Source: Eledone cirrhosa
Lineage: Eukaryota
NCBI GenBank assembly: GCA_964016885.1
Contig: OZ024764.1
Span: 62,001 to 126,000, forward strand
Reading direction: 5' to 3'
DNA length: 64,000 bases
Made by a program: the position numbers and the translations under genes. The notes below the pieces were generated by a model. It had not been told where the DNA came from, made no database searches, and was given only the letters and a program-made list of their open reading frames with translations. This document shows, piece after piece, positions 6,946 through 27,578 of the stretch. How positions within the stretch are numbered: position 1 is the first letter of the stretch; every line of letters starts with the position of its first letter.

Positions 6946-9307
6946 ACAGGCTTTTTGAATCTGACTGATAAAATGACAAGTCAGTCAATCATATTGGTGA
7001 CCACCCCTAGCCCCAGCAGGGAAAATGGAGAAGGCATTTCCCTGGAGGACGGCAAAGCCATTCCAACTCGGCAAGGCCATTACAACTCGCGGGGCTCACA
7101 CCTGCGGCTGGCCAGCTCAGCGCCTATGGTGGTGAGTAGGGAGGTAGCCCTAGGGCCAAGGACACCAGAAGTCTCCACTGCTACGGGGAGCCAGCTCAGT
7201 GCCTATGGTGGTGAGTAGGGAGGTAGCCCTAGAGTCAAGGACACCAGAAGTTTCCACTGCTACGGGGAGCCAGCTCAGTGCCTATGGTGGTGAGTAGGGA
7301 GGTAGCCCTAGAGTCAAGGACACCAGAAGTTTCCACTGCTACGGGGAGCCAGCTCAGTGCCTATGGTGGTGAGTAGGGAGGTAGCCCTAGAGTCAAGGAC
7401 ACCAGAAGTCTCCACTGCTACGGGGAGCCAGCTCAGTGCCTATGGTGGTGAGTAGGGAGGTAGCCCTAGAGTCAAGGACACCAGAAGTCTCCACTGCTAC
7501 GGGGAGCCAGCTCAGTGCCTATGGTGGTGAGTAGGGAGGTAGCCCTAGAGTCAAGGACACCAGAAGTCTCCACTGCTACGGGGAGCCAGCTCAGTGCCTA
7601 TGGTGGTGAGTAGGGAGGTAGCCCTAGGGCCAAGGACACCAGAAGTCTCCACTGCCAAGGGCACGACTGCGAACCTGTTGGAGAGCGACCGGTACTTGGA
7701 GAGTTTGGCCTCCTCAGCCCGACGTGCAGCAGAACCTGGGTTAGTCGCAGACTGCACCAGGTTGCGTCTGCAGAAGGTGCCAGTGCAAGTGGCATCCCAG
7801 ACGAGGGGTTTGCCATCTGACCTTTTGCCGTCCCCTCGATCCAACCCCACCGGCTCGAGCTTGGAAGGGAAGCCATGCTTTATGACCTCATTGAGGGCAG
7901 CATGGCGTGGAAGGTGGCCGGCACTGTGGAGACAGGAAAGCGGGTGGAGGCCGAAAGAGTCCACAGTGGATCCACAGCGACATTGATGTGGCTCGCAGAT
8001 CTGGAGTCCAAGCCTCAAGGAAACCTCGATGAGCAGGCTATTGTTATCCAACTGTGTGCCAGTGGAGAAGGAGGGCAGGGCATGGAGCCAGGCTCCACTG
8101 TGGGGTTTGGAGGCCGCACGGAAACAAGCAAGGTGGTGTTGGTCGAGCTGGCGCATGAGCCTGTCTGAGGCCAGGCTCCACTGGATGGCATCCCAAATGC
8201 TTTGGGGGGACTTGACGTCAACAGGGGGGAGAAGGAGGAGGGACGTCTACTTGGCTAAGTCCCAGCCGGTCCCACGTCTCACAGGCGGCCTCACGTTCTC
8301 TGAACACGGAGGGTTCTATTGTGTTTTGGAGAACTCTGCTGACGAGGACGCGGCATGAGGTTACCGACGAAAGAAACGCCAGCAAAGCCAACGAGATCAG
8401 GGACCGGAGGCCAAGGCCGCCATACTTGACAGGTAAAGTGGCCTGTTGCCATCCAATGTCATCAAAACTGACGTTGCATATCTCCTCGGCTGCTGCTCGG
8501 ATACAAGTATCAAGGTCAGCGAGGAGAGATGTGTGGGTGTAGCACAGAGCATTGCGAAGGGTTTAGAGGAGCTTAGGCATGGCCAAGCAGTTCCTCAACA
8601 GAAAGGGGGCTGGGTGGCCGTCGATCAAGCCCAGTCAGCTCGTGAGAGTCTGGAGTTGTTGAAGCCTGGACCTGATGGTGGAGCGGATCGCTGGAGGGTG
8701 GAGCGGATCGCTGGAGGGTGGATCGGTGTCCCCGAGGATGAGGACATCCTCTTTGGGTGGGTCAACTTAACCTGGTGGAGAATGGACCGCATGTCCGAGA
8801 CGGAGGCTGCAAAGCTCTCAGTATCGTGGCTGACATTCGTCACCTCCGACTTGGACGAGTTGACCTGGAGGCCGATTCCTGCCAGGGCAGGAACCACCGA
8901 TTGCAGGTCATGGCAGACAGTCTGTACGGGCCCGCCCAACATAGCATCGTCCAGATACCAAACGTTGAGAGGGGCCGTGATACTCCGGGCGATGTGGTCT
9001 ATACCAAGGGCAAACAGGAAGGAGTCCAAAGGGTCGCCCTGTTGGACCCCAGTGGCCGAAGGTATGACCGTATCAGTAGCAAGGAGCATGCCCGGAGCTC
9101 CATACAACAGGTGGGCCAACAGGTAGACAGAGGAGGCTCGGCCGAGGTTGGCTTCGAGCAGAGGGTCCCCGGCGTAAGCAGTTGAAGGCATTCCTTTCCT
9201 CTTGTTAAGCTTGACAATGGGGTGCCTGGAGTCCCTGGATGCCGGCTCTGGTGGGCAGCTGCTGAAGAACTGCCTGGCTGCATGTGTGGGCCCCGCACAG
9301 CCACCGG
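6946..9307 (-). mobile_element. 5'-truncated, decayed CRE-clade non-LTR retrotransposon (RT + restriction-like endonuclease)
   Basis: GVQQGDPL..FLFALGI, WYLDD, WQQATLPVKYGGLGLR, SGAWLHALP, CRCG..D.FGLH.LSC..RH..LN, WDATC..AEEAKLSKY, PLAVETSG, terminal AVLQGNA; 10-bp TSD ACATGTATAT at 6936-6945 and 9308-9317. Confidence 0.85.
7111..7655. repeat. 79-bp tandem array (~7 units) amplified from CRE coding sequence
   Basis: Period 79 (7141 vs 7220; 7191 vs 7270); unit = 71 bp encoding AVETSGVLGPRATSLLTTIGTELA plus 8-bp linker TACGGGGA. Confidence 0.93.
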
Positions 9308-9437
9308 ACATGTATATGCTTATTGAGGTTTTCTATCCTACGGGGGCTGTGATTCCTTACAGTAAATAGGGCGTCGTCCCTTTATACACCTCCTTATAGT
9401 ACAGGGATCTCATCCCTGATCTTGTGTAGGAGGTATT

Positions 9438-9768: not shown

Positions 9769-10191
9769 TTAATTAATTTCAAATAACCAGAATATACATA
9801 TATATATATATATATACTCATATTTATATATATACGCTTCTCACTCACACACAAGAAAAACAAAAAACAAAAATAAATCAAAAATAAATTAAAAAAAAAT
9901 ATATATATATTGAAATACTTAACTAAAACACACACACACGAACTTGTGAGTACATTTTCCTTTAACTACAAATTATTATTATATACTTTCGTCTTTTCAT
10001 TAACTTAATTAATTTCAAATAACCAGAATATACATATATATATATATATATACTCATATTTATATATATACGCTTCTCACTCACACACAAGAAAAACAAA
10101 AAACAAAAATAAATCAAAAATAAATTAAAAAAAAAAAAAATATATATATATTGAAATACTTAACTAAAACACACACACACTCAAAACTAGA

Positions 10192-11361
10192 ATGGCTAAC
10201 CAGCAAAAATCCAAACAGAACTGGTCTGATAATGAAATCGACATTCTAATAAACACATGGCATTGCCTTTCCCAAACAGAAAATATAGATGCTTCATCTC
10301 TGAACGACATTGCTAAACGTACAGTTCAATTTTTGAAAACTCGATCTGAACAACAGATTCAAAATAAATTAAAGCAAATCGAAATTGCTTTTAAATTAAT
10401 CAATAAACATTTGGATAAACTACGGTGTGTTTTCTCTTCGAATGCTGTCCAGCAGCAGCAACAACAACAACAGCAGCTACAACAGCAACAACAACAACAG
10501 CTACAACAACAACATCAACAACAGCTACAACAACAACATCAACAACAGCAACAACAACAACAACAGTGTGAACCACTCCTTGATTCATCAACAATGGCCG
10601 ATCTACTAAATGAAACTATTGACCCCCCAGTAGCCTCTGTCTCACAGCATGAAACGCCACATCCTTTCTCTGGCCCAGCAGTCCAATCATCACCACTGCC
10701 AACATCTCTGCCTACTACTACTACTACTACTACTACAACATTTTTGTCTACTGCTATGTCAAGGAATTTACCTTCTAATACCAGAACAAGAACTCTCCCT
10801 CCCACAGTCCACAAAGGTCGTCAAATCCTACCCAAACCATCATCTACACCTCTCACAACACCCACACCCACATACCCACCCACTCGAAACCCCATCATTT
10901 GCCGCTACTCTCTACGCTATAGAATATGTACGGATAGTGGCTGCAAATTCACCCATTTACCTAGGACAAAACGATCTATCCCCACAAACAGCCACCACCA
11001 TAATACATACTCTAATTTAACACCAACACAACCACCAATAACTCAAACAAGGAATCCACAAATCTGCCGTTTTTCCCTGCGAGACAGATTGTGTTTAGAC
11101 CGGGATTGTCCCTTTACCCATCTCCCGGGGACCCGTCGGATAAATGAAAATAAAATTAAAAATAAAAGCAAAAACAAAAACCATAACCTACATAAAAATA
11201 ACCACTACCACAGTCACCAACAGTCTTCTAAACAGGAAACTTCTTCCTCTTTTTTAGCCATAATGAATCTGGCAAAAGAACTGGAAAAAAACATTCGAGC
11301 TATCACCCAGCACCACCCTCCACTATCACCCCACTGCACAAACTCCCATTGCTGCCATTAA
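10192..11361 (+). CDS. LINE ORF1: Myb/SANT-like N-terminus, polyQ, P/T-rich linker, two CCCH zinc fingers
   Basis: NWSDNEIDILINTW...RSEQQIQNKLKQI; CRYSLRYRICTDSGCKFTH and CRFSLRDRLCLDRDCPFTH (C-x8-C-x4-C-x3-H). Confidence 0.85.
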   Translation: MANQQKSKQNWSDNEIDILINTWHCLSQTENIDASSLNDIAKRTVQFLKTRSEQQIQNKLKQIEIAFKLINKHLDKLRCVFSSNAVQQQQQQQQQLQQQQQQQLQQQHQQQLQQQHQQQQQQQQQCEPLLDSSTMADLLNETIDPPVASVSQHETPHPFSGPAVQSSPLPTSLPTTTTTTTTTFLSTAMSRNLPSNTRTRTLPPTVHKGRQILPKPSSTPLTTPTPTYPPTRNPIICRYSLRYRICTDSGCKFTHLPRTKRSIPTNSHHHNTYSNLTPTQPPITQTRNPQICRFSLRDRLCLDRDCPFTHLPGTRRINENKIKNKSKNKNHNLHKNNHYHSHQQSSKQETSSSFLAIMNLAKELEKNIRAITQHHPPLSPHCTNSHCCH

Positions 11362-14300
11362 CAAACAAACAAATTAACAACACACCAAAACAATTAAAAC
11401 CATCCACTCTCGCCTCTACATTTTTGCTTAACGCCCAAGGCATCAGCCCTTCCACCAATACTCAAAAATGGAAGATCAAATTCCTGGAGGACTGGATTGA
11501 TGTCCATCCAAACCACATCCCTTTCTTCGTCCTCACTGAAACCCATCTCAGTAACCTCCACTTGGAAGCCGAGGTGAAAGTGAAAAATTTCAAAGCCATC
11601 CGTGCTGATCGCGCTGGCAGAAGAAAGGGCGGAACTGCCATTTATGTCCATAATTCTTTCTCAACAGAGGCTATGAACATATTCACTAATGGATACTGTG
11701 AGGCAGTCACTGTATTCAGTCAAACCAACAACCTATTAGTAGTTGGGCTCTATAGGCCACCCCAAACGCCTGTACCATGCTTCAAGGAATGCCTCAACAG
11801 CATAAAGTGTTTCATCCAAGAGTGTCACCCTGACAACATCTTAATGATGGGGGACTTCAACCTCCCCGGAGTTGACTGGTCCACAAACACCCTGCCACCA
11901 GGTTCTTCTGCCTCAACCTCTGACAGGGAAGCTGTGGAATCGCTTCTTGACTTCATGGATGATTTCTTCCTATCCCAACTAGTGCTCGAACCAACGAGGT
12001 GCCACAAAAACGTCCTAGACTTAATTTTCAGCAATCACACTGACAATATCCACAATATTGCAGTGGAGAAAACTCTACTCTCTGATCATGACATGGTTCT
12101 CTGTGATCTGAGATTCCACCGTCCAATATACAAACCCAATGTCATTTCTCCTGTCCATCCGTTTGACGCTATGGATTTCCACAATGCAAACTGGGAAGCG
12201 ATCAGTCATGATCTTGCACATGTCGACTGGTCCTTCACGCACACTCATACACCCACTAACATCAAAAAGTCCTGGCAGACATTTGTGGACACTGTTACAA
12301 ACATATGTGCTAAACACACCCCATTAAGAACTATAAACAAATCTAAGAGCAGAATCCCTAGAAATAGAAAAACGCTCATCAGAAAAATTAAGAGAACGAA
12401 CAAAAAAATCAACAATCTGAAATACTGTCAGCAGCAACACATCAACTTGACTGCCATTTCATCACTAGAGATTAAAAAACATAACCTCCAAAACAACATA
12501 ATGTCCCTCATCAACAATCAGAGAAGAGCTGAAGAGGCCTGGGCCATTGAGAAGATCAAACTCAATCCCAAAGTGTTCTTTTCATTTGCAAAAAAACACA
12601 AAATCACTGGCTCTACTGTTGGCCCTCTAATTGATGAAAATGGCACTCTTCAAGACAATGCTAAAACCATGGGTGAGATACTGCAGAAACAATACTGCTC
12701 TGTTTTCAGCAATCCTGATATGGCCGATCTGGGCTGTATCGGCGATGTTACTCCCCATTACACCTTATCGGACATAACGTTTGGCGCCCCTGATGTCTTG
12801 GCGGCAATAAAGGAAATCAAGCATAATTCAGCAGTAGGTCCCGATAGATTCCCTGCTTGTGTCTTGAAGGCGTGTCAACACCAACTTGCTTCTCCTCTTG
12901 CCAATCTGTGGCGGAACTCACTGGATGCTGGATATGTGCCAGAAAACCTTCTATCCCAGTCTGTTGTCCCAGTTTTCAAAAAGGGAAACAAATCCCTTGC
13001 CGTGAATTACCGTCCAATCTCACTCACCTCTCATATCATTAAGGTATTTGAGCGAGTGGTGAGATCGCGAATGACCCACTTCCTTGAGAGTAACAATATG
13101 CTGAACTCCAACCAGCATGGATTCCGTAATGGAAGGGATTGCCTGACGCAACTACTGCATCACTTTGATGACATTTTGAGAGCCTTGGGAGAGGGTTCCA
13201 ACACTGATGTTATCTACCTTGATTTCAGCAAGGCCTTTGACAGGGTTGATCATAACATTCTACTGAGAAAGCTGTCCAATATTGGTGTCACTGGAAAGCT
13301 GCTGCAGTGGATCAAGAGCTTCCTGTCAAACAGAACCCAACATGTTGTAGTTGAGGGAGTCAAATCAAGCCCAGCCAAAGTCAGTAGTGGAGTCCCACAA
13401 GGCACTGTGTTGGGCCCACTTCTCTTCATCATCTATATTAATGACATCACTGACATCATCAAACACAGCAACATTAAAATTTTCGCTGATGATTCCAAGC
13501 TCCAAAAGGTCATCAATGGCGTGGATGACCGGATAAGCCTTCAGTCAGACCTACTGGCTGTTACCCAATGGGCAGAAAAGAACAACATGTTACTGAACGA
13601 AGACAAATTCGAACTGATCCACTTTGGAAAAGAGGATGCTCTGAAACTCCCGTACTCCCTTCCCTCCGGGGAAACTCTCGTGGCATCTAACAACATCAGA
13701 GACTTGGGAGTAACCGTGGACAGCAACATAAGCTGGACCACGCATATAAGCAGCAAAGTTGACATGGCCCGCAGAATGTGTTCCTGGATCCTCAGAACCT
13801 TCCAGTCGAGAGATTCCCGCACCATTATCCTTCTCTTCTCTACTTTCGCCCGACCACACCTTGAATACTGTTGTCCACTGTGGTCTCCCCACACGAAACA
13901 AAGTATCATGAAACTTGAAGCTCCTCAAAGGGCAATCACGAAAAAGATAGATGGCATGTCAGACCTTGACTACTGGGGTCGATTGGAAAACCTGAAACTT
14001 TACTCACTCCAACGTCGCCGTGAGCGTTATATTATCTGCATGATGTGGAAAATGTTCCATCATCACTGCCCAAATGATGTTGGCATCGCCTTCAAGATAC
14101 ACCCAAGGCTTGGACCCCGTGCTATCCGTCCCATTCAAAAATCTAAATCGCAACTCATAACAACAATACGGCACAATTATTTCACCTCAATCGGCCCTGC
14201 TCTCTTCAACATCACACCAGGACACGTCAAAACAGAAACTGACCACACAAAATTCAAGAAGTCTTTGGACAAATTCCTCCAAGTAATCCCGGACAAACCA

Positions 14301-14369
14301 CCCACACCCGGATATGTCTCCGCAAACAGTAATTCTCTTCTCGAATGGGCCATGGTGCCCAAATCCTGA
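11349..14369 (+). CDS. LINE ORF2: APE endonuclease + reverse transcriptase (CR1 clade); true start uncertain
   Basis: LNAQG, LTETHL, GLYRPP, MGDFNLP, LDLIFSN, SDH; [55 protein letters not shown]. Frame open from 11232; track start is TTG; first ATG is at 11673. Confidence 0.95.
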
Positions 14370-14444
14370 ATTGAAAGACTTCGCCAGGTGGTGCTATTAA
14401 GTTAGACATGGCCTGGGCCAATACTGGCCAAAACATTTCAAAGT

Positions 14445-14550
14445 TATATATATATACGTATATACATATATATATGTATATATATATGTATATATATATG
14501 TATATACATATATATATGTATATATATATGTATATATATATATGTATATA

Positions 14551-16280: not shown

Positions 16281-16467
16281 TATATATCTGCCGTGCTCTG
16301 GTCCCTGGCCACCATCAGTGCTGTGTCTGTTCTCTACGGCATCTACAATGTTCAAAACGGGGCTACAGTAACTGAAGGAGTCTCTATATTCTATAATGCA
16401 GTCAACCGTACCGTGTGGGGCCTCTGTGTTGGCTGGGTCATCCTCGCATGCACCACAGGATATGGAG
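16281..16467 (+). CDS. nrf-6: Internal exon B of NRF-6/OACYL-like gene
   Basis: tttcAG acceptor (16279-80), GTAGGT donor (16468); [22 protein letters not shown]...[26 protein letters not shown](G) with the family R..W.....W.I.AC..GYGG motif; phase 0 in, phase 1 out. Confidence 0.92.
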
Positions 16468-16793
16468 GTAGGTCTAATTCTTCTATCTCATCCTTTTGTC
16501 TTCCTATAGATATGTATTTGTTTATATATTAACCCTTTAGTGTACAAACCGCCTGAAATCGGCCAAAATTATTTCACCTTCATTTGTTCAAACCGCCCGA
16601 AATCGCCTGAAAACACCCACACTAAAAAATTGTTTTAAAAATAAACAAACCATCATCAAAATCTCGTCATTTCGAGACTGCTATGAGATTAGGCCCTTAC
16701 CGTGAAAATTAACACTTAATATAGTGGAACAACTTACAACAAAAAGTGTTTTTTTAACGTTGAAAGTGCAACAAATTTTTTGTGTGTATCAAC

Positions 16794-22206: not shown

Positions 22207-22378
22207 CTCGTATACGAGAGACGTGTGTTGACGTGTGTGAACAAGCTCGGCTACTGAGTCGGATTTACTTACTCAAAAAGTGAGTTTTGATTAATTTTTT
22301 TATACTGTAATATACGTTAACCCCTTGCCTTGGTCGTCAAACTTTGAGTTAAAAATTTATTACGGCAAACTAATAGAA

Positions 22379-23980
22379 ATGGACGGAATTTTCACATCTC
22401 ATCCTAACGTGAAAGCCACGCCCCCTAAGAAAGGTGATACAGAGAAGCTAGAAGCACAAGGCTCTAAGTCTTCCCTCCTGACTTCTGCAAAAGAAACATG
22501 GAACACGGAATTAAAAGAAAAATTTGTAAAAATGGGTGAAAACCCAGAAAGTCACATAAACGCAGACAAAAACAACAACGACAATAACAGCAATAGTCAC
22601 AACACCAACCAAGGAAAAAATAACGATAACACCAAACAAAGCGAACCCACTACTGGTACCTCCTTTGCACAGGCGGTCCGGAAAACACAAACCTGCAAGC
22701 AACTGGACATTACAACTCTGAGAGAAAAGATGAAGGAAGCGAAACAGTATGTAACTTTCAAAGAAGGAGGAGACTTCACAATCACCTCCCCACAAGAAAT
22801 CAAAAGAGACACGACGCTAAGAACGATATCTTTCAGAACAATTTCCAACATAACAAGGAAACCAACTCAATTATCCCAAAAAGAGATTGAGCTGGTCCTA
22901 AAAAATGTGTGGAGTGATATATCGTTCATACAAAAAGGGCCACTCTATGGGAATATAACGGTCCTAATGAAGGATCAATTGACGGCCAGGAAATACTCTG
23001 TGGCACCAATTGTTTCCAAGATATATACATTTTTCCCCACATATTTAGGGAAAAGAACGCAGAAGATAAGGGTCTCCGGAATCCGGCCAAATGCATGCAT
23101 TTCCTGGGTACTAACAGGATTTTTAGAAGACGAGGACGGAATCCTCTCAGTAGGAGAAGTCACCACAGACGTTTTCGGCGGTTTGAGCGTGGAGGTTCTG
23201 GTCCAAATGAGACCAGAACGAATAGCTAGAATACCACAGAGGGTGTCCCTCGATGGAGAAACATTTATATATATTTCAGCCGAGGGTAGGAGGCCCATAT
23301 GTTACTACTGTTCAAGCAGGGGTCATCTAAGGGCTGCTTGTCCTCAATTGACAAAAAAAAAGGCTCTTTTGCCTACACCCCACACACCACCACCGCCACC
23401 ACCACCACCACCACCACCTCCACCACTACCACCACAACAACAACAAAAACAACAGGGAAAAATAACACAAGACACGGCCCCACCCAAAACAACTCCCAAA
23501 ACACACACAAATACAACAAAACCCCAAAATACACCACTACCCGACAGCACGGACGAGGACCCAGCGGAAACGGCACCTAGTGACGAAGAGGGGGAACCCT
23601 TCCAACCTGTAAAAAGGAAAAAAAGAAAGCACCACTCGAACATAAACGAAACAAACACACAACCACCAACAAAAACAAAACAAACAGAACAAACAAAATC
23701 CGCCCCACCCCAAAACATAACACATACAACAAAACGTAAGCACACACAAGAACAACAAACAAACACAACACAAATAAAACAGTATACATACATTAACACA
23801 AATAACAAAGAACTAGTAAAAACAATACACAAAGACCCTTTGGTGGAAACTGAAGGGCAATTCTTTGCAAGCGCGGCCAACAAACCGCATTTAAAAATGA
23901 TAAGACTCCCAATGGACACCTATGCAAAACTAAGAGAGAACTTTCCTGAGGACGTGGGGAAAACGTACTCGACCCTATAA
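22379..23980 (+). CDS. Tx1-like ORF1 (gag-like, CCHC zinc knuckle)
   Basis: First ATG at 22379; SFAQAV motif, CYYCSSRGHLRAAC (C-x2-C-x4-H-x4-C), poly-Pro, FQPVKRKKRK basic patch. Confidence 0.88.
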   Translation: MDGIFTSHPNVKATPPKKGDTEKLEAQGSKSSLLTSAKETWNTELKEKFVKMGENPESHINADKNNNDNNSNSHNTNQGKNNDNTKQSEPTTGTSFAQAVRKTQTCKQLDITTLREKMKEAKQYVTFKEGGDFTITSPQEIKRDTTLRTISFRTISNITRKPTQLSQKEIELVLKNVWSDISFIQKGPLYGNITVLMKDQLTARKYSVAPIVSKIYTFFPTYLGKRTQKIRVSGIRPNACISWVLTGFLEDEDGILSVGEVTTDVFGGLSVEVLVQMRPERIARIPQRVSLDGETFIYISAEGRRPICYYCSSRGHLRAACPQLTKKKALLPTPHTPPPPPPPPPPPPPLPPQQQQKQQGKITQDTAPPKTTPKTHTNTTKPQNTPLPDSTDEDPAETAPSDEEGEPFQPVKRKKRKHHSNINETNTQPPTKTKQTEQTKSAPPQNITHTTKRKHTQEQQTNTTQIKQYTYINTNNKELVKTIHKDPLVETEGQFFASAANKPHLKMIRLPMDTYAKLRENFPEDVGKTYSTL

Positions 23981-24140
23981 CCGCGTCCTCTTGAAACGTT
24001 TCCCCACCCACACCTCACCAAACACCCCCACTCCACCACAGAACAACACCCCACCAAACAACCCCTCCAATACGCCCATGGATATTGTGCAACCTGCTCC
24101 TCAGGAGCCGAACAGGTAGGTCCTTCCTCTTTTAACCAAC

Positions 24141-27100
24141 ATGGCTGATATAAGAGTTGGGTGTCTGAATGTACGTGGCCTGGGACTGTCTTGGAAACAA
24201 GGCAAACTTTTAAACGATCTCAGGTCGCATAGAATGGATGTAATGGCTATTTGCGAGTCCAGGATCAGCAGCGAGCACCAACTGGCGCCCCTCTTCGACG
24301 ACTTTGAGATCTTCGCATCTCTCTGTCAACCGGGGGGTGGGGGTGGAGTTGTCGTTCTGCTGCGAAAACACCTGGGCCTCGCCATACAGAAGGTGCACCT
24401 GGACCCGGAGGGTCGACTGGTGGTTTTAGACGTCGGCAGTAGTGAAAGTGGAGCCCTTAGACTAATAGCTGTGTACGCCCCTTTTTGGGCAGCGCGGCCG
24501 GAATACTTCCAACGTCTGGAAACTTTTCTGGGAACGTCCCGCTCCTTGCTTTTAGTGGGGGACTGGAATGGTATCCTGGATGCACGTTGGGACTATGTAG
24601 GGGCATGTGCCAATAGAGGGGGGTGTAAAAGCCTCAAAAGGTTAATCGGCCGATTTGACCTGGCCGATAGATATCGACTAGATTTTCCGACTGTACCACT
24701 ATGGACGTGGACCAATCGCAGTGGAACATCTAGGTCGTACCTAGATAGGGTCCTAGTTAGAGAGAACGATAGGGACACATTTAGCTGTCCAAAAATGTTC
24801 ATGGTTGACTATTCGGATCACAAGTTAGTGACCTGCATAGCCAACCTTGATAGAACCCATAGACAGGGACCCGGTTACTGGAAGCTGAACTTGTCCTTAC
24901 CGAGAAGCAAAGCTTACAGTAAACGGATTAGCACGTTAGTTAAGCAGAGTTTGACAGGGGCAATTGTCAACAACAGGTGGTGGAGCTCTCTTAAGAGAGC
25001 AATTAGAATAGAATCGATAGGTTTTAGTCAGGAATTAGCAAGGGATAGGAACAAGACGGAAAGGGAATTAGTAGATAGAGTAGAAGAGGCGATTAGGAGT
25101 GGCAATGTAGCCGGCGTGCTGGCATCAAGAATGGCCTTAGACCAGTTCTTTGAGGTGAAGCATGAAGGCTGCGTTGTCAGGAGTAAAATACGTGCTCTGG
25201 GTAATGAGGGAGCCAAAGCTGTGAGCTGGGCCCGAGTGACAGAGGCAAAAAGTGGGAACAAGTCCACGATTCGGTCTTTGAAGGACCAGGATGGGCGTGT
25301 GATCCTTGAACCTGGGCAGATGTGTGCGGCCTTTCAGCGGCACTTTGCACGACTGTTCGAGAGGGGCGGCGCGCCGGGTGAGACTATGGATTTCAATCCA
25401 TACCTCGACGGTCTGCCGCGCCTCTCGGACGCGGAGGCGAAGTCCTGCGAAAGGACGATTTCAGCTGCTGAGATAGGGGCGGCGCTGAGCCAATGCGGCA
25501 AACGCAAATCCCCGGGTCTCGATGGTCTACCATACGAGCTATATGTAGCGATGCCGGACTTGTTCTCCGATATCCTCGAAGCGGTCTACTGCAACTGGCA
25601 GCAGAACGGGAGAATTCCCAGTTCTGTGACCAAGGGCGTAGTTACGCTGGTGAGGAAGGATGAGAACAAGGGGGATGACATAAGTAACTTCAGGCCCATA
25701 ACTCTGCTAAATACAGAGTTAAAGATTTTGGCCAAGGTGTTAGCGAAGAGGTTGGCGCTTGTCGTTGGAAACCTGGTGGGAGAAGCGCAGACATGCGCAA
25801 TCCCGTCCAGGTCCATTCACGACAATCTCCACCTTATGCGATACATCATAGAGAGGGTAGGGAATGAACCCGGCTTTGGTGGGGCCCTGATCAACTTGGA
25901 TCAATCTAAAGCTTTCGATAGGGTTGACCATCATTACCTGGATGCGGTGCTCGCGGCGGCAGGCTTCGGACCCGTTTTCAGGGGTTGGATTGCTGCGATG
26001 CACAGCAGCAACGTCTGCTCAAGGGTCAAGGTGAACGGCCACCTCTCGGAGCCGTTCCAAATCATGCGATCCATCCGACAGGGATGCCCTCTCTCCTCCC
26101 TACTGTATGTGCTGGCTCTTGAGCCACTACTGCGGAAGTTGGAGCGGTTGCAGGGCATCCCTTTGGAACCGGGATTGCAGAAAGCGGCGTCGGCCTACGC
26201 CGATGACGTGACAGTAATGGTGTCGAAAACCTCGCAAATCGGTGAGATCGGCACCTTACTGGAGGAATATGAAAGGTTTACAGGAGCCAAGCTGAACCGG
26301 GACAAGTCCGTCGGTTTGCAACTCGGAACATGGAGAGGCAAACCGATGCCCTCCAACGACGTCGTCGGACGCTGGACGGAGGGCCCGGTGAAGCTGCTTG
26401 GGGTCTGGTTCGGACCAGACCTCCAGGTGGAGAAAAACTGGAACGAGGTAACGGCCAGGGTGTTTGCACTCACCCAGAAGTGGGCCCAGTGCAAACTATC
26501 CCTGAAAGGTCGAGCGGAGGTGGCGAATACTTATATAGCATCCGTCATCTACTACCGCTTGACCGTCGTGCCTTGCCCAGTGAAAAGACTCGCCAAAATG
26601 GAGTGCGCGCTGTTCCAATTTCTTTGGAACAAGCGGACCCCTTTGGTGAGGAGATCCATCTGCTGTCAACACCCTTCGAAAGGAGGGCTGGGGATGCCGT
26701 GGCTACAGATGCGTAAACACGCATTAAGGCTACGGCACCTCCAGGTATTCCTCACCGGTCAACCGGTGTGGGCCCCGTTTGTGAGGCGAGCCTTTCCCAG
26801 ACTCGTCTCGCTCACCGAGCTGCAATCCTGGGTCAAGCAAAGACCGAGAAAAGTGGGCGACTGGCACATTGAATGTGCCCAGGCGCTCACGGCCCTCTGG
26901 AAAGCGGACCCGGCAATCAGTGGAGACTCCACCTCGACATTCTATAGAGGGTTGGTACGCAGCAGGTGCGACGATGCTCTCGGAGAAGCTCTAGGCATGG
27001 AGGAAGATGAACTGGCCAGTCTGTTCGGTAGGACGTTTGGCCCTGGACCGATGGACAACTTCCAAAAGTCCCTGGCTTGGCAGTGCTACCGAGGGGCTCT

Positions 27101-27578
27101 ACCCGTTCGAGACAAGCTCCACAGGCATGGGAGCCTGGGTAGAGATCCTTTGAATAAGATCTGTCCGAGATGCGTGCATGATGACGAAACCGTTGCGCAC
27201 GCATTCGTACACTGCCCAGGCATTGCTGACCTGTGGGGCTATGTGGAACGACTACTGTCGAGGGTGGGACCAATCCGGTTGACCACCGAGTCCATTGTCA
27301 CGATCAAACCGCCTCCCCCTTTCAAAAACGAAGGAGAGGCGGTTTTTCTCTGTGTGGTAGCCATGGCTAAAGAAGTTGTATGGTGGACGAGGCTGAAAGG
27401 GCTGAGGTCAGACACCTTTCTCTCCGGCCAACAACTGGTCCCCTTTTTCAAATACCATTTTAAAAGAAGGATCAGAATGGAGAGAGAGGTGCTCTACCCC
27501 AGCAAGTTTTATGAAAGGTGGGTGAAAGTAGGGAGAATGGCCAGAGTGAATGGGTCTTCTCTCTATATCAGCCTGTAG
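24141..27578 (+). CDS. Tx1-like ORF2: APE endonuclease + RT + C-terminal zinc finger
   Basis: LNVRGL, VYAP, GDWN, SYLDRV, SDH, GPGYWKLN; KSPGLDGLPYE, FRPITLLNTELKILAK, LDQSKAFDRV, RQGCPLS, YADD, GGLG, CPRC..ETVAHAFVHC. Confidence 0.96.
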   Translation: MADIRVGCLNVRGLGLSWKQGKLLNDLRSHRMDVMAICESRISSEHQLAPLFDDFEIFASLCQPGGGGGVVVLLRKHLGLAIQKVHLDPEGRLVVLDVGSSESGALRLIAVYAPFWAARPEYFQRLETFLGTSRSLLLVGDWNGILDARWDYVGACANRGGCKSLKRLIGRFDLADRYRLDFPTVPLWTWTNRSGTSRSYLDRVLVRENDRDTFSCPKMFMVDYSDHKLVTCIANLDRTHRQGPGYWKLNLSLPRSKAYSKRISTLVKQSLTGAIVNNRWWSSLKRAIRIESIGFSQELARDRNKTERELVDRVEEAIRSGNVAGVLASRMALDQFFEVKHEGCVVRSKIRALGNEGAKAVSWARVTEAKSGNKSTIRSLKDQDGRVILEPGQMCAAFQRHFARLFERGGAPGETMDFNPYLDGLPRLSDAEAKSCERTISAAEIGAALSQCGKRKSPGLDGLPYELYVAMPDLFSDILEAVYCNWQQNGRIPSSVTKGVVTLVRKDENKGDDISNFRPITLLNTELKILAKVLAKRLALVVGNLVGEAQTCAIPSRSIHDNLHLMRYIIERVGNEPGFGGALINLDQSKAFDRVDHHYLDAVLAAAGFGPVFRGWIAAMHSSNVCSRVKVNGHLSEPFQIMRSIRQGCPLSSLLYVLALEPLLRKLERLQGIPLEPGLQKAASAYADDVTVMVSKTSQIGEIGTLLEEYERFTGAKLNRDKSVGLQLGTWRGKPMPSNDVVGRWTEGPVKLLGVWFGPDLQVEKNWNEVTARVFALTQKWAQCKLSLKGRAEVANTYIASVIYYRLTVVPCPVKRLAKMECALFQFLWNKRTPLVRRSICCQHPSKGGLGMPWLQMRKHALRLRHLQVFLTGQPVWAPFVRRAFPRLVSLTELQSWVKQRPRKVGDWHIECAQALTALWKADPAISGDSTSTFYRGLVRSRCDDALGEALGMEEDELASLFGRTFGPGPMDNFQKSLAWQCYRGALPVRDKLHRHGSLGRDPLNKICPRCVHDDETVAHAFVHCPGIADLWGYVERLLSRVGPIRLTTESIVTIKPPPPFKNEGEAVFLCVVAMAKEVVWWTRLKGLRSDTFLSGQQLVPFFKYHFKRRIRMEREVLYPSKFYERWVKVGRMARVNGSSLYISL

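Follow-up and report, generated by a model that had tools for sequence, protein, structure and literature searches.

In a 64,000-nucleotide stretch of the Eledone cirrhosa genome (contig OZ024764.1, positions 62,001 to 126,000; hereafter the window, numbered from its first letter) we analysed a young, intact, CR1-group-like long interspersed nuclear element (LINE) whose second open reading frame (ORF2), encoding endonuclease and reverse transcriptase, has no start codon ahead of the endonuclease. ORF2 is probably made by -1 ribosomal frameshifting at the conserved site U_UUU_UUA(G) (11250-11257; TTTTTTAG in the DNA), which would give an ORF1-ORF2 fusion protein. The feature is real and conserved, and the comparative support for this reading is strong. 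Such a fusion had been proposed in a preliminary description of this DNA; the proposal gains from our finding that the first of its two heptamers is invariant in six divergent families and that the -1 frame stays open all the way from that heptamer to the endonuclease.

The ORF1-ORF2 junction of the window element

The coordinates given in the preliminary description proved right throughout. ORF2 lies in the -1 frame relative to ORF1, is open over 11232-14369 following a TAA at 11229-31, and overlaps by 130 nucleotides (nt) with ORF1, which ends at the TAA of 11359-61. The first in-frame ATG of ORF2 (11673) is located downstream of the motifs LNAQG (starting at 11427) and LTETH (starting at 11532), and no AUG of the L1/SART1 type was thus found near the ORF1 stop ahead of the endonuclease Asn. 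T TTT TTA (11250-56) and A AAA AAC (11286-92) are both phased with ORF1 and are the sole canonical heptamers anywhere in it; an in-phase X XXY YYZ heptamer in the upstream frame, with the downstream frame in -1, is the arrangement of retroviral-type frameshifting. For this copy alone, the chance of two in-phase heptamers within the overlap was P ~0.008-0.009, that of at least one was 0.11-0.47, and that of T TTT TTA specifically was ~0.01. The weak hairpin GCCA..TGGC noted earlier does exist, but it follows the first site with zero spacer and is no better than in shuffled sequence (z -0.76 to +0.46).

To describe the family of the window element (family A) in its 3.0-Gb genome, we scored 40 copies out of 1477 candidates. 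All 40 were 100% identical over 11100-11750, and a genome search with a 30-letter junction pattern matched 620 copies. The lack of an AUG before the endonuclease, which the preliminary description had wished to see checked across copies, is family-wide; given the identity of all scored copies at the junction, it belongs to the active master, and decay of a single copy (a lost AUG or an indel) is ruled out. Among 20 unique older A-type copies, counted from an alignment from which the query copy was omitted and in which three identical copies counted once, the octamer was exact in 11 and the others differed at scattered positions. The linker of the older A subfamily shows differences of -12 and +3 nt that keep the frame, and the second heptamer is kept in several older copies. 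Six family A copies (L254-L259) have seven T at the site, which brings the two ORFs into a single frame; the extra T occurs on different single-nucleotide polymorphism backgrounds, and the copies form no lineage.

Relatives of the element

Relatives were found by endonuclease or ORF1 queries, which are blind to the junction. They comprised two further families of the same genome (B and C), 45 loci from a metagenome scan (39 of them read, 6 omitted with their match at the contig's 5' end), and an apparently host-derived family (L166/L167) from a scan of prokaryote assemblies, the follow-up of which added 8 loci including L253. The animal-type LINEs within prokaryote assemblies (L166, L167 and L246-L253) are probably host contamination. 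In quick trees, families A, B and C, the two closest metagenome loci (L091 and L092) and L166 formed one clade (support 98 and 100), while L253 (G002:C249) fell outside it on a long branch. Pairwise ORF2 identity within the clade was 35-46%, and four-fold sites were 23-46% identical, with synonymous sites near saturation.

Viral contigs contained no relatives with a junction, and 100 prokaryote genomes related to a contaminated assembly yielded no new family. Longer, fused ORF1 proteins were looked for and not found, though this counts as weak evidence. A diverged contig from one of four contig runs had a pattern that was unmatched in the window genome. In run X1, contig depth was ~11,000 over 11035-11300 as compared with 250-400 on either side; contig depth cannot rank regions.

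Conservation of the octamer and of the -1 frame

The octamer TTTTTTAG, read as T TTT TTA G in the phase of ORF1 and combined with an ORF2 in the -1 frame, was present in five of the six clade families with a visible junction and also in L253. Across these six octamer families (A, B, C, L091 and L092 of the clade, plus L253 from outside it) we compared 36 columns, of which only the eight octamer positions were invariant, the flanks being variable. Phe-Leu is preceded by S, N, S, S, P or A, the codon of which always ends in T. Conditioned on the same amino acids and on each element's codon use, the probability of T TTT TTA was 0.005-0.021 per family and 1.7e-8 jointly for B, C, L091 and L092; the match in L253 (P ~0.055) counts for less because L253 is AT-rich. 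None of 18 Phe-Leu pairs in ORF2 bodies was encoded by the T TTT TTA codons. The site is conserved at the nucleotide level beyond what the amino acids need, a pattern that a splice acceptor at the same place would predict in part. Within families, the octamer was kept in 28 of 28 unique family C copies and in 27 of 39 unique family B copies with a junction. A sub-lineage of family B with CAG in place of TAG was considered and rejected: three of the 39 copies have T-to-C at -3 and three have A-to-G at -2, and we read these variants as decay because they share no private changes.

Between the site and the catalytic domain the -1 frame stays open. In the six octamer families, it contained no stop in 330 codons downstream of the site versus 20 in 330 codons upstream (P=1.4e-6), and the third frame contained 26 stops downstream versus none in the -1 frame. 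The site lies 60-76 codons ahead of the endonuclease Asn in the clade, and in five of the six octamer families the linker is devoid of an in-frame Met before that Asn. Checked across related families, as the preliminary description had suggested, the conserved heptamer with its -1 phase held for T TTT TTA and failed for A AAA AAC, which is absent from the five other octamer families; the two-site picture was dropped and the second heptamer rejected as the slip site. The absence of an AUG held for five of the six octamer families, the exceptions being L091 and, among families without the octamer, L166/L167.

Outside the clade, junctions were varied. In L104 (1092-1130), ORF1 ends Pro-Phe-Leu-Glu-stop on T TTT TTG, ORF2 is in -1 and lacks a Met ahead of the endonuclease, and the T run is not followed by AG. 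In L114 a stop follows T TTT TTA, and a Met is present. Three loci of another LINE group (L094, L100 and L115) have -1 overlaps of 136-244 nt and neither a canonical heptamer nor a Met ahead of the endonuclease, and L095 has a +1 overlap.

Proposed route to the fusion protein

According to the frameshift model, ribosomes would start at the ORF1 AUG (10192), and most would complete ORF1p (389 amino acids, aa). At the Phe-Leu codons a small fraction, a few percent, would shift one base back, and these ribosomes would go on to translate a 57-codon linker followed by the endonuclease and reverse transcriptase. The predicted fusion would have ~1,392 aa and the junction SSSF(L/F)SHNESGK, and would be devoid of the C-terminal helix of ORF1p. 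An N-terminal extension of the enzyme should be tolerated, since at five other LINE loci (L113, L118, L128, L132 and L133) 380-570 residues precede the endonuclease within one ORF. The site would likely work without a 3' RNA structure, through the inherent slipperiness of U6A, which would be in keeping with an enzyme required at much lower levels than ORF1p.

It is quite possible, if short of probable, that a wide invertebrate LINE lineage makes its enzyme in the retroviral way, as a Gag-Pol-like fusion, via a structure-free U6AG octamer that travels with a PHD/CCCH ORF1 module, even between clades. A weak PHD-like domain was found in ORF1 of family C and of P0008, and ORF1 of L253 combines PHD-like and CCCH parts with a Phe-Leu-Gly/TTTTTTAG junction, a hint that the slip site may pass between clades together with ORF1, as a single module.

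Evidence against frameshifting and rival explanations

Several findings weigh against frameshifting. Six families are a small sample, and their phase is inherited and hence not independent evidence. L091 has an in-frame Met 14 codons ahead of the endonuclease Asn. The sixth clade family (L166/L167) has no octamer and is ambiguous, since both an in-phase A AAA AAC (21 nt into the open frame) and an in-frame Met are present. No stimulatory RNA structure was found either: in families A and B candidate structures were no better than shuffles, none was shared among families, and no stem-loop or pseudoknot was identified 5-9 nt downstream in a search that did not model pseudoknots explicitly. Nor was there a conserved long-range pairing of the junction with the 3' tail, or a shared long helix; of 20 window-by-family tests of pairing with the tail, only two family B windows fell below 5% of the null, which was not repeated in the other four families. 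The missing stimulator is not fatal, as in reticulocyte lysate U6A without an added stimulator yielded 4-6% of -1 product (PMC3458567). The element likely works like a retroviral frameshift but deviates in this one feature, the 3' structure.

The G after the heptamer is invariant in all six families, yet G starts only ~22% of codons. A splice acceptor predicts this G and a plain heptamer does not; the G creates a stop in the -2 frame, and a functional role of that stop would be a guess. The likeness of the octamer to a splice acceptor was missed in the preliminary description and is the main, live rival: TTTTTTAG would be the 3' splice site of an intron that runs from a phase-2 donor in ORF1 to 11257 and joins the start of ORF1 to ORF2, with the Phe-Leu codons retained for the sake of ORF1p. 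The invariant AG closes the octamer exactly where the open ORF2 frame begins, the site is the top-ranked AG for pyrimidine content in family A (1/186) and in L092 (1/183), and ORF1 of A, B and C contains weak phase-2 donors (scores 2.8, 2.8 and 4.6). Families B and C, by contrast, are mid-ranked (172/332 and 150/259), and a competing AG lies within 15 nt upstream in B, C, L091 and L253; a pyrimidine tract and AG clear of a competing AG are seen in A and L092 only. An acceptor has no need of exactly six T, which all six families have. Moreover, a pattern for processed copies (non-T at both -6 and -4) had no match, versus 620 copies with T at both positions; this argument assumes that spliced RNA is copied back like unspliced RNA. 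A pattern for changes at -3 matched just two copies, each of them unspliced with a T-to-C point change. These patterns cover both the best ORF1 donor and the 5' untranslated region (UTR) donor. As weak further evidence, no joint at 11257 was found among the 15 of 33 joints listed for 10780-12300, which come from four contig runs of unknown kind. On balance we regard splicing as unlikely.

The end of ORF1 points to a second rival. In all five clade families the ORF1 stop lies close to the start of the endonuclease, 1-24 codons ahead of its Asn, which suits termination-reinitiation as well as frameshifting. ORF2 would then be a separate protein initiated at a non-AUG codon near the ORF1 stop, candidates being CTG 11352 and TTG 11349, near-cognate codons 7-10 nt ahead of that stop, and the octamer would be kept for another reason. 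Only a few two-ORF LINEs have been tested for the way in which they translate ORF2, and reinitiation is the accepted one (PMC2881922, PMC5009743), also for both L1 and SART1 (PMC2881922); the L1 ORF2 accepts any sense codon in place of its AUG (PMC1965478; PMC5009743). Reinitiation leaves unexplained the nucleotide-level conservation of T TTT TTA as well as a -1 frame without stops over the 36-72 codons that precede the ORF1 stop (combined P 1.2e-4, synonymous resampling), and no near-cognate codon is common to the families. We consider it quite unlikely.

The seven-T copies bring in a third explanation, in which slippage of RNA polymerase or reverse transcriptase inserts an extra T into the run, and a minority of RNAs thereby carries a single fused ORF. 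Six such copies exist, and HIV reverse transcriptase makes indels at U6A (PMC5737442). If slippage were the sole source of enzyme, seven-T copies should be common, but they amount to ~1% of ~620 and, scattered over backgrounds as they are, form no lineage; the fixed A and G would also be unexplained. This route appears highly improbable.

Comparison with known systems

Frameshifting as proposed here resembles that of HIV-1 gag-pol (PMC6547452) in its identical heptamer U_UUU_UUA, its Phe-Leu phase and the G that follows (in HIV-1 part of a GGG codon), and in having a structural gene upstream and the polymerase in the -1 frame. It differs in that the window element is a non-LTR (long terminal repeat) element with no stem-loop at stimulator distance (SL1 in HIV-1) and no protease found in ORF2. 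Among non-LTR elements, Dictyostelium TRE5-A and TRE3-A are stated to need a -1 frameshift for ORF2 translation (PMC5911963). They are likewise two-ORF APE-type elements; unlike the window element they are amoebal and target tRNA genes, and the statement cited names no slippery site or experiment.

The ORF2 AUG of L1, and reportedly that of SART1, sits at the ORF1 stop or beyond it; the window element has no such AUG ahead of its endonuclease, and its ORF2 frame is open far upstream of that stop. The window element would resemble mammalian L1 and silkworm SART1 in its bicistronic RNA and in the dependence of ORF2 translation on that of ORF1 (PMC2881922). The CR1-group LINEs described with a PHD-containing ORF1 (PMC4120745; PMC13343379) share an ORF2 with APE and reverse transcriptase, a short 3' UTR stem-loop without poly(A) and, weakly, the PHD-like domain of family C and P0008. 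The words 'CCCH', 'frameshift' and 'overlap' are absent from the main text of both papers as available to us, and the accessible part of a bivalve survey (PMC10294476) does not mention 'frameshift'. Our literature search found no description of a slippery site in CR1-group LINEs; older chicken and turtle CR1 papers may have proposed frameshifting.

If the frameshift is true, an animal LINE lineage uses a retroviral strategy, its enzyme carries the ORF1 zinc fingers in cis, and it offers a natural case of -1 frameshifting without an RNA stimulator. Database entries in which an ORF2 protein begins with an internal Met (P0001, P0002 and P0005) would then probably be truncated annotations. With its conserved eight-letter site and hundreds of near-identical copies, this young family allows the question to be tested directly.

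Layout of the element and other features of the window

The LINE extends over ~9769-14446 and is bounded by TA microsatellites. With APE and reverse transcriptase in ORF2, no LTR, and dispersed copies that are 5'-truncated, it is an APE-type non-LTR retrotransposon. Elements of the CR1 group (CR1/L2/Rex1) have a short 3' UTR with a stem-loop and a simple-repeat tail rather than poly(A), and the window element ends in the same manner. We take it to be CR1-group-like from its motifs and 3' end; our trees, built with no labelled references, place it in an unnamed clade.

Features of the window element (positions in the window).
Feature	Position	Strand	Remarks
5' UTR	9769..10191	+	~236-241-nt tandem monomers (repeats spaced by 236 and 241); this copy has ~1.8 units
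ORF1, 389 aa	10192..11361	+	ATG 10192, stop TAA 11359-61
Two Cys3His (CCCH-type) motifs of ORF1	10900..11124	+	10900-10959 and 11065-11124, by eye
Octamer TTTTTTAG	11250..11257	+	predicted -1 slippery site U_UUU_UUA plus G; 3' splice-site look-alike
Second in-phase heptamer A AAA AAC	11286..11292	+	likely incidental
-1-frame linker, site to endonuclease	11257..11426	+	stop-free, no in-frame ATG
APE-type endonuclease domain of ORF2	11427..12098	+	PF14529 E=6.6e-14, PF03372 E=2.3e-7
Reverse transcriptase domain of ORF2	12984..13715	+	PF00078 E=4.2e-31; ORF2 stop 14367-69
Short 3' UTR	14370..14446	+	TGGCCT then small hairpin; element ends in TA microsatellite

The 5' UTR monomers recur in other copies of the family, and each complete monomer contains a donor-like GTGAGT motif; we find them reminiscent of mouse L1 monomer promoters. 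ORF1 encodes, in order, a weak Myb/SANT-like N-terminus (PF13837, E=0.0024, below the curated cut-off), poly-Gln, a Pro/Thr tract, two CCCH-type fingers and a C-terminal helix-like stretch that starts from Phe-Leu. The fingers and this last stretch were identified by eye in the translation; a Pfam search with the window-copy ORF1 gave no match for the CCCH motifs, and a finger of family B matched PF00642 weakly (E=0.013). TGGCCT plus a small hairpin (14400-14446 in the window) is common to the 3' tails of families A, B, C and L091 (3' ends of L235, L236 and L091), and this shared tail is likely a recognition signal for the reverse transcriptase.

Elsewhere in the window, a second apparently intact LINE at 22295-27578, presumably Tx1-like, has frames of 561 aa and 1152 aa, with an ORF2 that has its own Met. 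A broken reverse-transcriptase remnant (7551-9332, minus strand; PF00078, E=1.7e-4) adjoins a 79-bp tandem array (7111-7655). The stretch ~16300-16530 (+) reads in translation like a putative membrane acyltransferase exon, and the elements of the window may therefore sit in an intron. A 53-bp satellite occupies 31169-64000 (~616 copies, 96% match), and arrays of 48-49 bp and 72 bp are found elsewhere in the window.

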